A stretch of 64,000 nucleotides of DNA from a virus (Duplodnaviria > Caudoviricetes), in IMG/VR virus record IMGVR_UViG_2898597404_000001, positions 10,614 through 74,613 of that record. The stretch is one strand, 5' to 3'. The notes beneath the pieces are model-generated. The model saw nothing but the letters and a program-made list of their open reading frames with translations, ran no database searches and had not been told where the DNA came from. Of this stretch, positions 7,703 to 18,473 are shown one piece after another; position 1 is the first letter of the stretch; each line of letters begins with the position of its first letter. Made by a program: the position numbers and the translations under genes.

Positions 7703-8124
7703 CCGACGACCACGAGCCCCGCGTGCTCACCCACCGGCCCAGGTGCAAGATCTGCCTCAGACCCGTCACCGGCGACATCCACGTCGGCCGCTTCATCGAC
7801 AACGGGCGCCTGGTCTGGGAGGGCAGCGGCCACCAGCGATGCGTCCGCGCCGTGCTCGACGCCGACGCCATGGAGCTGGCCCGCGTCTGGGGCGAAGCCT
7901 GCGCGGCCGGCTACCACGAGTTCCCCGGCCAGTGGACGCGGGACCCGTCCGACCCGTACGACGACGCCCGGTACTGGGTCTGCGCCCGCGGCTGCGGCCA
8001 CGTCCAGCGCCACCCCGGCTACGGCCACGGACGCATCCTGGCGATCATCGAGCTGTTCACCAGCGACGAGTTCGACCGGTACCTGGAGCGCCACGGCGTC
8101 TCCCTCGCGGAGGCCGCCCGATGA
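7699..8124 (+). CDS. Zn-binding hypothetical protein (TTG start)
   Basis: RBS gaaagga; CKIC..HQRC..C..H..CARGC. Confidence 0.6.
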   Translation: MTDDHEPRVLTHRPRCKICLRPVTGDIHVGRFIDNGRLVWEGSGHQRCVRAVLDADAMELARVWGEACAAGYHEFPGQWTRDPSDPYDDARYWVCARGCGHVQRHPGYGHGRILAIIELFTSDEFDRYLERHGVSLAEAAR

Positions 8125-13684: not shown

Positions 13685-14068
13685 ATGGACCGCACACACA
13701 TCCTCGGCGCGTTCGAGAACCAGATGCTCAGCATCTTCGAGGACGAGGCGCAGGCGCGCGAGAAGCTCGCCCGCGAAGTCCTCAACCAGGCCGGACCATA
13801 CGCGGACGCGATGCGCGCCCTGATCAACGCCCAGGGCGAGGCCAAGCCCTACCGCGCCGTCATCGCCGCGCACTGCGAGAGGGGCGTCCCGCTCGCGCTC
13901 GCGCTCCGCGCCGAGCGCGAGCGCTGCACCCAGGCGCTCGTCGAGCGCCCCGAGACCCTCCACACGGACGGCATCAGCACCGACATCGCCCGCGCCGAGC
14001 GCGAAGGCGCCCGCCGGTTCCTGCAGCGCACCGCCGCTTACATCGCGCGCCTCGACGAGGCCGCCTGA
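13685..14068 (+). CDS. hypothetical protein, paralog of 10755-11144
   Basis: shared C-terminal motif; same promoter box upstream. Confidence 0.75.
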   Translation: MDRTHILGAFENQMLSIFEDEAQAREKLAREVLNQAGPYADAMRALINAQGEAKPYRAVIAAHCERGVPLALALRAERERCTQALVERPETLHTDGISTDIARAEREGARRFLQRTAAYIARLDEAA

Positions 14069-14128
14069 CCGAACCCGCCACGGGGCGGCGGGACCCGCCC
14101 GCCGCCCCCGGACAGGAGAGGAACCACC

Positions 14129-14866
14129 ATGACCGACACCAACCCGGAGGCCGGCATCGACCCGGCCGCCATCGTCTTCCCGGACCTGATCACGGCCTGC
14201 TGCGACCTGCCGCACCCCGCCGCCCAGGACGGCTCCAACTTCGTCTGCCGGAACTGCGACACCCCCACCGGCCGCAGGCGCTACAAGGCGCTCCTGGAGT
14301 GCGAGTGCGAGTCCGTCGTCGAGATCCCCGACGACGGACGCTCCGCCTGCCCCGACTGCGGCCTGCTCTACTGCATCGCCGCCGACTTCCCCGACGGCCT
14401 GATCATGGCGGAGCCCTGCGACAAGCCCGCCGTCACCGAGGACGGCCGCCACTGCCTCGCCCACGCCCCCGCCCGCGACCTCCACGCGGCCCTGGACAAC
14501 ATCACCGACTCCCTCGAAGACGCCGACCACCTGACCGCCTACCAGCGCTACCTGACCAGGGCCTCCCAGTACCCGCCCCTCCACACCTCGTCGGACTCCC
14601 GCTACACCGCCTACGCCGGACACGTCACCCTCCAGCGCCACAGCGACACCGCGATCCGGTACTGGCGCTGCGACCACCGCCACCCCGACCCGCAGGCCGC
14701 CGCCGAGTGCGCCCGGCAGGAGCTGCTCTACCAGCTCGGCACCGCCGACGAGGCGTACGGGCACGCCGCGTGCAGCATCCTCGGCCTCCACGAGTGGACC
14801 GTCCCCCGCGCCGATGGCGGGTCCCTGCCGCAGTGGTCCTGGGAGAACGTGATGATGCGCGCCTGA
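14129..14866 (+). CDS. Cys/His-rich multi Zn-finger protein
   Basis: CRNC, CEC, CPDC, CDHRH...C. Confidence 0.7.
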   Translation: MTDTNPEAGIDPAAIVFPDLITACCDLPHPAAQDGSNFVCRNCDTPTGRRRYKALLECECESVVEIPDDGRSACPDCGLLYCIAADFPDGLIMAEPCDKPAVTEDGRHCLAHAPARDLHAALDNITDSLEDADHLTAYQRYLTRASQYPPLHTSSDSRYTAYAGHVTLQRHSDTAIRYWRCDHRHPDPQAAAECARQELLYQLGTADEAYGHAACSILGLHEWTVPRADGGSLPQWSWENVMMRA

Positions 14867-14974
14867 CCAGCCGCCCCGCCGGGGGACCTCCCCGCAGCCC
14901 CCGGCGGGGCGGCCCCCTCCGCGCCCCCCAGATCCCCTCACAGCCCCGACCACGACCCACAGGAGGTAGCCCCT

Positions 14975-15574
14975 ATGCCCGGCATCCGATCCGCCGACTA
15001 CGACGAGACCGTGGCCAAGCTCATCCTCGACCAGATCATCCAGGACATGGCCAAGGGCCTCGCCAAGGAACCGCTCTCCGAACTGGAGCACGAAGGGGGC
15101 GGCGCCCGCCACGAATTCATGATGGCCGCGCTCGACGAGTACAAGAAGCGCGGCGGCCAGATCCAGACCCACATCGGCGGCCCCGCCGAAGCCCTCCTCA
15201 AGATCCTCCACCAGGAGCGCCGCCTGACCATCAGCCTCCCCGGCGCCTTCCACACCTACCTGGCCGGCACCGCCCTCTGCACGACCCCGCCCGAACGCCT
15301 CAGCCCCGAAGAGGCCACCTGCCGCCGGTACCTCGACGACGCCCAGGAGATCGAGCGGGGCCGCGGACGCGAGTACCGCCTCACCATCCCGACCGACGAC
15401 AAGGTCGTCGTGGAACGCGTCCTGTCCGTCCTCGACACCTACGCCCAGGCTCTCTACGGCCCCGCCCCCGCCCAGGGCGACCAGTCCGCCCGCCGCGAGG
15501 CCCAGAAGACCGGCCGCCTCGTCCTGGGCCGCATCGCCCAGGCCCGCCACAACACCCTCGGCACCAGCCGATGA
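14975..15574 (+). CDS. hypothetical protein
   Basis: RBS aggagg, strong codon bias. Confidence 0.7.
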   Translation: MPGIRSADYDETVAKLILDQIIQDMAKGLAKEPLSELEHEGGGARHEFMMAALDEYKKRGGQIQTHIGGPAEALLKILHQERRLTISLPGAFHTYLAGTALCTTPPERLSPEEATCRRYLDDAQEIERGRGREYRLTIPTDDKVVVERVLSVLDTYAQALYGPAPAQGDQSARREAQKTGRLVLGRIAQARHNTLGTSR

Positions 15575-15588
15575 CCGGAAGGAGAACC

Positions 15589-16077
15589 ATGGAGATCCCG
15601 CAGCGGCTCGCCCACCTGCCGGTCTGCCCCCGCAGGAACGTCCCCGTCCCCTACGCCAACATCACCACCGAGGACGGGCAGCACGACTTCACCGCCCTCG
15701 ACTCCGCCAAGGTCGTCCGCCTCGCCGCCGAACGCCGCTGCGGCATCTGCGAGGACACCCTGGACTACTGGATCGTGTTCCTCGGCGGCGAGCGCAGCGC
15801 CCAGAGCCGCGCCTACACGGACCCGCCGATGCACGAGGAGTGCGCACGGTTCGCGGCCCGAACCTGCCCCTACGTCACCCGCGCCCACATGAGCCGCCGC
15901 AAGACGCCCCTCACCCCCGACACCACCGTCCCGAAGGGCTTCTCCGAGGACAAGCCCGCCGAGTTCCTCCTCTACTTCACCCGCAGCTACAAGCACCAGG
16001 TCACCCGCGACGGCGTCCTGTTCCGCCCCGCCCCCGCCGTCCGCCTCGAACGCTGCGGCTACAGCGCAGCCTCCTGA
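15589..16077 (+). CDS. actinophage-type Cys/His protein
   Basis: PVPY...CGIC...DPPMHEECARFAARTCP. Confidence 0.7.
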   Translation: MEIPQRLAHLPVCPRRNVPVPYANITTEDGQHDFTALDSAKVVRLAAERRCGICEDTLDYWIVFLGGERSAQSRAYTDPPMHEECARFAARTCPYVTRAHMSRRKTPLTPDTTVPKGFSEDKPAEFLLYFTRSYKHQVTRDGVLFRPAPAVRLERCGYSAAS

Positions 16078-16097
16078 CCGAGAAAGGAACGGACCGA

Positions 16098-16667
16098 ATG
16101 ACCGAGACCACCGAGACGACCGAGAAGCGGCGCGAATCCAGGCTGTCCCCCGCCGGGCTCGCCGCGCTGCTGGAGCTGGCCGCCGCCGAGATGGACCCCG
16201 ACGCGATCACCGCGTTCGCCGAGACCGCCGCCCGCCTGGACGACCGCCACAGCATCAAGAACAAGTACGCCATCTGGGTCCAGTGCCCCGACGCCGTCCA
16301 GGTCTACGGCTACATGGAATGGCAGCAGCACGGCCGCCAGGTCCGCTACGGCCAGTCCGCCATCGGGATCTTCGCCCCCCTCACCCGCCGGACCGGCACC
16401 GAGGAGAAGGGAGGCGAGGACGCCAAGCGCACCCCCGAGGAGAAGGCAGGCAAGGACGAGAAGAGCCGCGAACGGGTCCTCCACGGCTTCAAGGTCGCCT
16501 GGGTCTACGACCTCTCCCAGACCAAGCCCCTCGACTGCCCATGCCCCCGGAAGGGCCCCTGCACCTGCCCGCCCCCCGAACCGCCCGCCCCGGCCGGCAC
16601 CGCCCCGCCGACCGGAGACATACAGGACCTGCTCGACGCCCTGACCGAGGACCCGGACGACCAGTAG
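16098..16667 (+). CDS. ArdC-like N-terminal ssDNA-binding domain protein (DUF1738-type)
   Basis: HSIKNKYAIWVQCPDA..VYGYMEWQQHGRQVRYGQSAIGIFAP...FKVAWVYDLSQT matches the ArdC-N pattern; no metalloprotease domain. Confidence 0.8.
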   Translation: MTETTETTEKRRESRLSPAGLAALLELAAAEMDPDAITAFAETAARLDDRHSIKNKYAIWVQCPDAVQVYGYMEWQQHGRQVRYGQSAIGIFAPLTRRTGTEEKGGEDAKRTPEEKAGKDEKSRERVLHGFKVAWVYDLSQTKPLDCPCPRKGPCTCPPPEPPAPAGTAPPTGDIQDLLDALTEDPDDQ

Positions 16668-17051
16668 CCTGCCGGTCCCGACGCCCGAACGGGGGCCTCA
16701 TGCCCGTGACGACAAGCCAGTCGATGCCACGCCCGCGCGGGGGCTTCGTGCCCGCGACGATCAGCAGCTCGGAGCAGCGCCCGTGCCGGGGCTTCGTACC
16801 GGCGACGCTCCATGCCTCCACGCCCGCGCCGGGGCTTCGTACCCGCGACCAGGCAGGTCTGTACCTCGTGCCCAAGCCGGGGCTTCGTACCCGCGACCAC
16901 CGGCTCGCCGCCGCGACGCCCGCGCGGGGGCTTCGTACCCGCGACGCAGGAGGTCTGACCTCCACGCCCGAGCCGGGGCTTCGTACCGGTGACAACAGGT
17001 CGCCGACAGCCGAACGGGGGGCAGGGCCCGCAGCACACTGAGGCCCGCTAT

Positions 17052-17116
17052 GCCCTGGAAGGGCCTCACGCAGCCGTGAGCGGCCCCCCGACGCACCCTC
17101 TGGGAGCAATAATGGG
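17052..17116 (+). promoter_or_regulatory. array-internal leader-like block, copy 1
   Basis: 39 nt identical to 17920-17958; AATAAT at 17108. Confidence 0.55.
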
Positions 17117-17919
17117 TCCACTCGGCGGGCTCCTCCGATGCCCGCGCCGGGGCCTCGTACCGGCGACGGCGCGCGAATGTGACCACGCCCGAGCGGAGGG
17201 CTTCGTACCCGCGATGGAGGGTCACCCCCGCCACGCCCGAGCCGGGGCCTCGTACCCGCGACAGACGCACCCCCGCCCGGCCACGCCCAAGCCGGGGCTT
17301 CGTACCGGCGGCCCGGAACTGGGAGCGACGCCCAAGCCGGGGCCTCATACCGGCGGCCCTGTAAGGGGAGCAGACGCCCAAGCCGGGGCCTCATACCGGC
17401 GGCCGATGAGCAGGGGTCCAAACGCCCAAGCCGGGGCTTCGTACCGGCGGCCCCAGAGAGAAGGCCGACGCCCGAGCCGGGGCCTCGTACCGGCGACTAC
17501 GCGACGGAGTCACATGCCCGCGCCGGGGCCTCGTACCGGCGACCCGGTACCGGGGGAGCAGCGCCCGAGCCGGGGCTTCGTACCGGCGACCAAGTTCGAG
17601 ACGACCGATGCCCGAGCCGGGGCCTCGTACCGGTGACTACGAGATCGAACCCCATGCCCGAGCCGGGGCTGCGTACCGGCGACTGTAGATGCCTCAGGAC
17701 CATGCCCGCGCCGGGGCCTCGTACCGGCGACTACGGAGAGGGCGCCCCACGCCCGAGCCGGGGGCTTCGTGCCCGGCGGCAAGCCATCGGACTCCTCCAG
17801 GCCCGAGCCGGGGCTTCGTACCGGTGATCAGCGGAAGCTGCTCGGCGCCCGCGCGGGGGCTTCATGCCCGCGACGTAGCAGGAACAGCCCACCCCAGCCC
17901 GGCGAGGGGAGCCCGAGTG

Positions 17920-17984
17920 GCCCTGGAAGGGCCTCACGCAGCCGTGAGCGGCCCCCCGGCGCACCCCGCAGGGGCTATAAGGGA
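17920..17984 (+). promoter_or_regulatory. array-internal leader-like block, copy 2
   Basis: 39 nt identical to 17052-17090; TATAAG at 17976, same offset as in copy 1. Confidence 0.55.
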
Positions 17985-18473
17985 ACGCGGCGGTGTCACC
18001 AGGCCCGAGCCGGGGCTTCGTACCGGCGAACGAGCAACCGACTTTCCCCAACGCCCACGCAGGGGCCTCGTACCTGCGACGCGCAGATGTAGCTGTCCAC
18101 GCCCGAGCCGGGGCTTCGTACCGGCGACATCCACAACCTCCTGCGCTGCGCCCGAGCCGGGGCTTCGTACCGGCGACATGGCATGCAGACTCGTCACGCC
18201 CGAGCCGGGGCCTTGTACCGGCGACACACGACGACCACCCATGCCCGTGCCGGGGCCTCGTACCGGTGACACGGCGACGAGTCGTCCTCACGCCCGTGCC
18301 GGGGCCTTGTACCGGCGACATTGCCTGGATGATCGCTATGCCCGAGCCGGGGCCTCGTACCGGCGACTCAGCGCAAGGACCCGCGCCCGAGCCGGGGGCT
18401 TCGTACCCGGCGGCGGCCAACCGGCACTTCGGTCACGCCCGCGCAGCGGCTTCGTAGCTGCGACCTCCGCAGC

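Follow-up and report, generated by a model that had tools for sequence, protein, structure and literature searches.

Between positions 16681 and 18464 of a 64,000-nt stretch of phage DNA (the window, which is G000:C28:23512-87511 of a 9.6-Mb genome whose large contigs have 70–74% G+C) lies a tandem array of short structured repeats, which is very probably, on the comparisons given below, one of four subtype V-M (Cas12m) CRISPR arrays carried by a prophage of ~83 kb. The array has 33 units at 16683-18464, all on the + strand and with a median period of 48 nt, each made up of a repeat of 28–31 nt and a mostly unique spacer of 12–19 nt. A fuzzy search of the whole window with a 28-nt core returned 30 substitution-only copies on the + strand and none on the − strand, and an edit-distance scan added three copies bearing insertions or deletions (indels), which brings the total to 33. 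The interval between units is 43–52 nt in 30 of 32 cases; the other two, of 174 and 156 nt, fall across interruptions. The unit core is GCCCGA-GCCGG-GGCTTCGTA-CCGGC-GAC, preceded by a semi-conserved sAy. No frame with coding-like G+C content at third codon positions was found in 16670-18560, and the window gave no Rfam match at gathering thresholds and no tRNA with ARAGORN. The locus is laid out as follows:

16680..16993, + strand: sub-array B1, 7 units, core starts 16683, 16731, 16779, 16822, 16870, 16918 and 16966
16994..17139, + strand: interruption 1, 146 nt, with a 47-nt core at ~17052-17098
17137..17874, + strand: sub-array B2, 16 units, core starts 17140 to 17847
17560..17590, + strand: example repeat in consensus form, 31 nt, AGC-GCC-CG-AGCCGG-GGCTTCGTA-CCGGCG-AC
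17591..17606, + strand: example spacer, 16 nt, flanked by the repeat's 3' GAC and the sAy-GCC of the next repeat
17875..18002, + strand: interruption 2, 128 nt, with a second copy of the 47-nt core at ~17920-17966
18000..18464, + strand: sub-array B3, 10 units, core starts 18003 to 18437

Sub-array B1 starts 13 nt past the stop of the upstream gene (16098-16667), which has a weak ArdC-N-like match (Pfam, 5.4e-4, below cut-off), and 157 nt of non-repeat DNA follow B3 before a ParB-like gene (18622-19485; phrog_723, 1.5e-39). In the example repeat the outer hairpin pair is A.G. The same repeat occurs in three other places on the contig, making four arrays and 73 units in total, spread over about 82 kb of the prophage; the units of every array are in sense orientation relative to the neighbouring genes. 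The sister arrays are:

C28:23250-23420, + strand: array A, 4 units
C28:94838-96511, + strand: array C, 34 units, starting 17 nt after the cas12m stop
C28:14001-14093, − strand: array D, 2 units, downstream of the − strand integrase

The gene that array C follows encodes the putative effector, P0001, a protein of 849 amino acids (G000:C28:92272-94821, equivalent to L019:4873-7422; + strand), which is outside the window, in the same prophage, ~50 kb downstream of the window array. When compared with PDB sequences by phmmer, P0001 matched the Cas12m chains 8pm4_A (3.6e-49), 8hhl_A (7.3e-46) and 23vw_A (2.2e-32) in two blocks, residues 9-207 and 494-847. Its AlphaFold2 model (predicted local distance difference test, pLDDT, 83; predicted template modelling (TM) score 0.75) led Foldseek to the same proteins, 8hhl_A with E 8.6e-34 and target TM 0.79 and 8pm4_A with E 5.8e-32 and target TM 0.83, with Cas12f and TnpB far behind at E about 1e-5. 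The frame is intact (an 867-residue open frame without stops) and is the only cas12m match in the genome. Between the two matching blocks lies an insertion of ~285 residues (residues ~208-493; L019:5485-6357), found elsewhere only in the closest relative, G018, and in two Actinomadura proteins (at 63% and 52% identity). The insertion has no family match; in the full-length model a helical part follows a beta-rich one, and the segment gave a poor model when folded alone from a two-sequence alignment (pLDDT 54.5). By alignment the RuvC triad would be H553, D741 and D834, and the corresponding residues of distant relatives are D, E and D; the choice of motif columns is our own reading. Cas12m proteins are reported with D-E-D, H-D-D and N-D-D variants of RuvC and to bind DNA without cutting it (Bigelyte et al., PMC11013384). 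Relatives of this Cas12m occur in three of 104 genomes of the genus, this one included. No match to Cas1 (PF01867) was found in the genome, which is 97.7% complete, and V-U-type loci are described as typically without adaptation genes (PMC11013384).

A search for cas12m relatives, seeded with an alignment of the seven closest sequences, found relatives of P0001 in 12 IMG/VR viral contigs (L022-L033; 22–35% identity), one Actinomadura record and one Streptomyces metagenome-assembled genome. In 7 of the 12 viral contigs an array lies directly downstream of the cas12m relative on the same strand, with a repeat consensus of cAAyGCCyG, a 6-bp stem, GGCnnnGTr, the complementary stem and AC. We built a covariance model, R1, from 45 repeats beside cas12m relatives at 11 foreign loci, none of them from this genome. 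R1 recovered 32 of the 33 window units, all on the + strand (E 1.8e-8 to 0.11): 7/7 in B1, 15/16 in B2, where unit 17376 was missed, and 10/10 in B3; its seven other matches in the window all had E ≥ 0.16. Among the sister arrays it recovered 33/34 units of C, 4/4 of A and 2/2 of D. The window repeat thus belongs to a family found directly downstream of cas12m genes elsewhere. The period in seven other V-M arrays is mostly 72–76 nt, and the repeats within an array are near-identical. In G018 the units are degenerate and irregularly spaced, at 49–299 nt, and there are remote clusters on another contig; hence dispersal and degeneracy are shared with this closest relative and the regular 48-nt packing is not. 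The exact repeat pattern had no match in viral_contigs, in 60 relatives the 13-nt loop motif had no more than single chance matches, and comparison of the array DNA with 104 genomes of the genus gave noise, except for G018. As a separate observation, ~700 nt of short, GTC-rich periodic repeats (L027:7159-7852; units of ~5-10 nt, for example GAGTC and AAGTC) lie just upstream of a cas12m relative in one viral contig, where the search turned up no more than one repeat of V-M type, at 7870; the result for L028 was likewise one hairpin match.

The repeat contains a stem that varies from unit to unit. An earlier note on this DNA, made from its letters, had listed a series of stem variants and proposed that they reflect selection on structure; all the listed variants are present, each 2 nt further downstream than it had placed them. 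The list had missed unit 17187, which carries a one-sided insertion. By position, the variants are:

16683, + strand: stem ACGGG/CCCGT
16731, 16918 and 17847, + strand: stem GCGGG/CCCGC
18053, + strand: stem GCAGG/CCTGC
18437, + strand: stem GCAGC/GCTGC
17751 and 18385, + strand: paired insertion GCCGGG/CCCGGC
16966, 17610, 17801 and 18243, + strand: stem GCCGG/CCGGT
16822, 16870 and 17235, + strand: uncompensated C.C

The note's description of the 5' segment and the loop needs small amendments. The 5' GCCC and the loop GGC, described there as invariant, are so in all 33 window units and not in sister array C, and the loop formula GGCYTCRTR fits generally, three loops deviating from it (GGCTGCGTA at 17656 and GGCCTTGTA at 18198 and 18292).

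Covariation within the contig was measured on 65 of its 73 units, eight units with indels being left out. Over the six hairpin columns and a 3-bp pseudoknot, 93.0% of cells were paired, compared with 87.2 ± 0.6% in shuffles, and 28–47% in controls in which the pairing was slid. Five pairs changed on both sides (1.4 in shuffles), as did 24 cells (5.2 in shuffles), and none of 500 shuffles reached any of the five covariation measures. The main covarying pair is C:G in 42 units, G:C in 14, A:U in four, U:G in two and unpaired in three. Insertions matched on both arms occur in three contig units (17751, 18385 and C95621) and one-sided indels in four. Since the units are paralogues this test overstates the signal, and the independent test is provided by the orthologous arrays. 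The orthologue alignment comprises 63 distinct repeats; this contig supplied five of them, L020 13 and 11 other loci the remaining 45. Here 97.2% of cells were paired against 80.1% in shuffles, of which 0/500 reached the observed value, and slid controls paired at 37–51%. Changes on both sides were found at all nine pairs, six of the hairpin and three of the pseudoknot. Selection on the hairpin is thus borne out in repeats beside cas12m genes at other loci, where 6/6 of its pairs change on both sides.

The pseudoknot between the 5' GCC and the loop GGC had been put forward in the earlier note as a possibility; across orthologous arrays 3/3 of its pairs change on both sides, which gives it the covariation that it had lacked. 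The variants are GGC/GCC in L025, AGG(G)/CCCT and AGCG/CGCT in L032, TCC/GGA in L020, GTC/GAC in contig unit C94892 and GTT/AAC in G018. The + polarity that had been favoured for the unit also holds: the contig's own units have 19 G.U cells and one A.C cell on the + strand, and the other rows of alignment A5 have a ratio of 21:1. Pairing is maintained on the + strand only, and cas12m is encoded on that strand. With positions numbered back from the repeat's 3' end, the hairpin pairs -23..-18 with -8..-3, so that it ends 2 nt before the spacer, and the pseudoknot pairs -28..-26 (GCC) with -17..-15 (GGC). In the CRISPR RNA (crRNA) of Cas12m2, -22..-17 is reported to pair with -8..-3 and G(-23) with A(-2); there is also a pseudoknot, stacked on a stem, and the guide-target duplex measures 17 bp (PMC10442227). 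The crRNA helices given for PmCas12m are -28..-26 with -15..-17 and -23..-20 with -3..-6, and its mature crRNA has a repeat part of ~33 nt and a guide of ~17 nt (bioRxiv 10.64898/2026.03.26.714355). Both predicted helices of the window repeat closely match the positions reported in these accounts of Cas12m crRNA scaffolds.

The spacers are atypically short, 12–19 nt in 69 of 71 units on the contig, with a mode of 17 nt (27/71) followed by 16 nt (17/71), and the contig-wide period has a median of 48 nt (43–61 nt for 65 of 68 intervals). A repeat of 31 nt with a spacer of 16–17 nt therefore gives a unit close in size to a mature Cas12m crRNA, and spacers of 16–17 nt would fit the reported 17-bp guide-target duplex. 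In pairwise comparison of spacers, 2 of 2080 pairs scored ≥8, where the shuffle mean was 0.23, and the rest look unique. The two are diverged duplicates, C95883/C96178 and B40361/B40457, the latter being the window spacers 16850-16866 and 16946-16962, two units apart (CAGGCAGGTCTGTACCT and GCAGGAGGTCTGACCTC). The array thus appears to have grown partly by internal duplication, and the drift of its repeats with pairing kept fits long residence without Cas1-driven renewal. Near matches of two array C spacers, one of 15/15 and then mismatches and the other of 17/18, were seen 3 kb apart at G000:C19:172658 and 175726, one of them preceded by TTT; the counts are within chance.

Each of the two interruptions contains a copy of the 47-nt core, and the copies are 98% identical; genome-wide these are the only two, both inside the array, which they split in three. 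The first core has two hairpins, GGCCC-TGGAA-GGGCC and CTCACG-CAGC-CGTGAG. It is followed by AATAAT, ~14 nt before the next repeat, and the second by TATAAG, ~17 nt before the next repeat, both hexamers being TATAAT-like. The elements may possibly be an internal promoter or leader; a sigma-70 consensus scan of 16500-18700 gave no promoters.

The assignment to subtype V-M, of which we are highly confident, rests on several lines of comparison: the Cas12m homologue on the same prophage, which matches Cas12m chains in sequence and fold; the same repeat beside that effector, where array C begins 17 nt past the cas12m stop; the recovery of 32/33 window units by a model made from foreign loci; a hairpin and a pseudoknot that covary and lie at published scaffold positions; spacers of a length that fits the 17-bp duplex; and the lack of a Cas1 match, as is typical of V-U-type loci, together with the precedent for V-M systems in prophages. 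On this basis transcription of the array would run rightward, either together with the + strand phage genes around it or from the two elements inside it, and the transcript would be cut to crRNAs of ~48 nt, each with a scaffold of ~30 nt and a guide of 16–17 nt. Cas12m (H-D-D by alignment) with these crRNAs would bind matching DNA next to a protospacer-adjacent motif and, leaving it uncut, would block transcription or replication, as such proteins are reported to do; the prophage would direct ~70 guides at rival mobile elements or host genes. The array would not have been built by Cas1-Cas2; its repeats would have drifted with structure kept, and at least two spacer pairs would have arisen by internal duplication. 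From the crRNA-sized units, the drifting but structure-preserving repeats and the lack of Cas1 one could go further, to a hard-wired guide library that grows without Cas1-Cas2, either by unit duplication and mutation or by copying processed crRNAs back into DNA, and serves as a programmable repressor set of ~70 guides read from four genome places at different stages and aimed at host genes or at rival elements; we offer this extension tentatively and regard it as doubtful.

A number of observations weigh against the V-M assignment. The window array is ~50 kb away from cas12m, its 48-nt period is far from the 72–76 nt that dominates the seven other V-M arrays, and P0001 is unrecognised by Pfam, NCBIfam and PHROGs. 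The outermost stem pair is absent in 36 of 65 units (35 A.G, one A.A), and single-unit minimum-free-energy folds are no better than shuffles (z -1.08 to +0.75), in a sequence of 73% G+C and with a method that is nested and cannot represent a pseudoknot. No protospacer was found beyond chance in the organism's own genome, by blastn-short and 16-mers, or by 14-mers in 288 kb of foreign loci. The 16-mers with ≤1 mismatch gave 148 own-genome matches against 88 for reversed spacers, two low-complexity spacers accounting for 97 of the 148, and spacers of 16–17 nt are too short to score in large collections, a 17-nt match being expected by chance in viral_contigs. Finally, as many as 7 of 28 positions in a repeat depart from consensus, a degeneracy that a decaying array would show as well. 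On that last point an array of V-M descent could be a fossil, its units no longer used and its repeats decaying in the prophage, a reading to which the three units with uncompensated C.C, the four contig units with one-sided indels, the degenerate and irregular units of G018 and the lack of targets in the own genome and the fetched loci also lend themselves. Unselected decay would, however, break pairs, whereas 93% of cells pair and both-side changes are in large excess over shuffles; insertions are matched on both arms in 17751, 18385 and C95621, the spacing is tightly regular and the cas12m frame is intact. We consider a fossil array improbable.

Two other functions for the repeats can be set against a working guide array. 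They might act in bulk as an RNA decoy, similar to an RNA anti-CRISPR, that soaks up a Cas12m belonging to the host or to a rival element, with the spacers as filler. Some phages are known to carry repeat units that inhibit Cas proteins (PMC11656645), and the spacers here are very short and without a target found; yet the genome's only cas12m is the prophage's own, intact and adjoining a sister array, and 16–17 nt is the working guide length reported for Cas12m, so that the spacers are long enough to guide. A decoy is in our judgement very improbable. Least probable of all, and hardly to be credited, is an array of double-stranded DNA sites, whether the centromere of the ParB-like protein, as sopC is in F, or replication iterons. 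Tandem units with an inverted repeat just upstream of a ParB-like gene are what such an array would offer, and the dispersed arrays recall dispersed centromere sites. But bases that change while pairing is kept are not favoured by a reader of double-stranded DNA, the G.U cells are on the + strand only (19 to 1) and the non-palindromic pseudoknot pairs covary; moreover, the repeat family lies beside cas12m and not parB in 11 foreign loci, and no such array lies near the closest phage ParB-like gene (that of TurkishDelight; 49.7% identity across 62% of the query). A centromere of the ParB/sopC type was rejected on the change of sequence with pairing kept and on the strand asymmetry of that pairing.

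The element that carries the arrays is a siphovirus-like prophage of ~83 kb in a tRNA-Pro gene. It is bounded by a direct repeat of ≥40 bp at C28:13223 and 96619 that overlaps a tRNA-Pro(CGG) gene, has a tyrosine integrase at C28:14107-15756 on the − strand and contains neighbouring genes for a helicase, portal, major head, tape measure and tail proteins and endolysin, which together place the window inside it. Array C ends ~108 bp from the right end of the prophage and array D is ~740 bp from the left end. Directly 3' of the ParB-like gene, the window at 19485-23000 encodes a cupin, a DegT/DnrJ/EryC1-type aminotransferase, a myo-inositol-1-phosphate-synthase-like protein and a weak glucosyltransferase match, predicted to form a small sugar or aminocyclitol pathway inside the phage, which could serve DNA or cell-surface modification. 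Megablast of 14000-22000 found no match in phages; in plasmids it found no more than two matches, both at 76% and lying under the inositol-phosphate synthase gene.

If the assignment is right, a puzzling structured repeat is explained by a known RNA-guided DNA-silencing system whose guides the array supplies, and the crRNA hairpin and pseudoknot of the structural papers gain covariation support within and across genomes. Repeat-finding software may miss arrays with spacers of 16–17 nt and degenerate repeats. The effector was not seen by Pfam, NCBIfam or PHROGs and such loci may therefore go unannotated. Were the system active, a temperate phage with ~70 guides for a non-cutting Cas12m would represent natural multiplexed transcriptional silencing, and from the compactness of its units it would follow that the ~17 nt pairing with the target suffice as spacer in a V-M array. 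Among papers on Cas12m in Actinomadura or phages and on degenerate type V arrays with short spacers, none describes such a locus by title or abstract, and the supplementary V-M tables (Bigelyte et al. 2024, Wu et al. 2022) may list such loci.

Among known systems, the sopC/ParB centromere arrays also consist of tandem units with an inverted repeat beside a ParB-like gene, and differ from the prophage arrays, in which pairing is strand-asymmetric, the pseudoknot covaries and there is an association with cas12m. V-M systems are reported to be enriched on plasmids and to occur in some prophages as well (PMC11656645). With the known V-M systems (Cas12m2, 8hhl; 8pm4; PmCas12m) the prophage shares effector sequence and fold, repeat family, hairpin and pseudoknot positions and a guide of ~17 nt; as in them, no adaptation genes were found, and the H-D-D triad read by alignment is one of the described variants. 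In contrast, the solved Cas12m proteins have 577–614 amino acids and the one here 849, with its ~285-residue insertion; the known V-M repeat is 36 nt with a period of 72–76 nt, against ~31 nt and 48 nt; and, unlike the known systems, the prophage has degenerate repeats in four arrays over ~82 kb. The IMG/VR contigs L022-L033 likewise pair cas12m relatives with downstream arrays on the same strand (7/12), and differ in their near-identical repeats and longer period. An example of a virus-encoded CRISPR system without adaptation genes is the V-M locus of myxophage MV-1, described in a preprint as a phage cas12m with an adjacent array, no cas1, cas2 or cas4 and no confident targets, and there comprising a Cas12m of 610 amino acids with D-E-D and a single array of one consensus repeat and eight spacers (bioRxiv 10.64898/2026.09.14.751636); against this the prophage has H-D-D, ~70 spacers in four arrays and compacted units. 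Given V-M systems on plasmids and prophages and in MV-1, the kind of system is already known. What is new here is that the units are compact, that the repeats keep their structure although degenerate, that there are four arrays and that the effector is enlarged.

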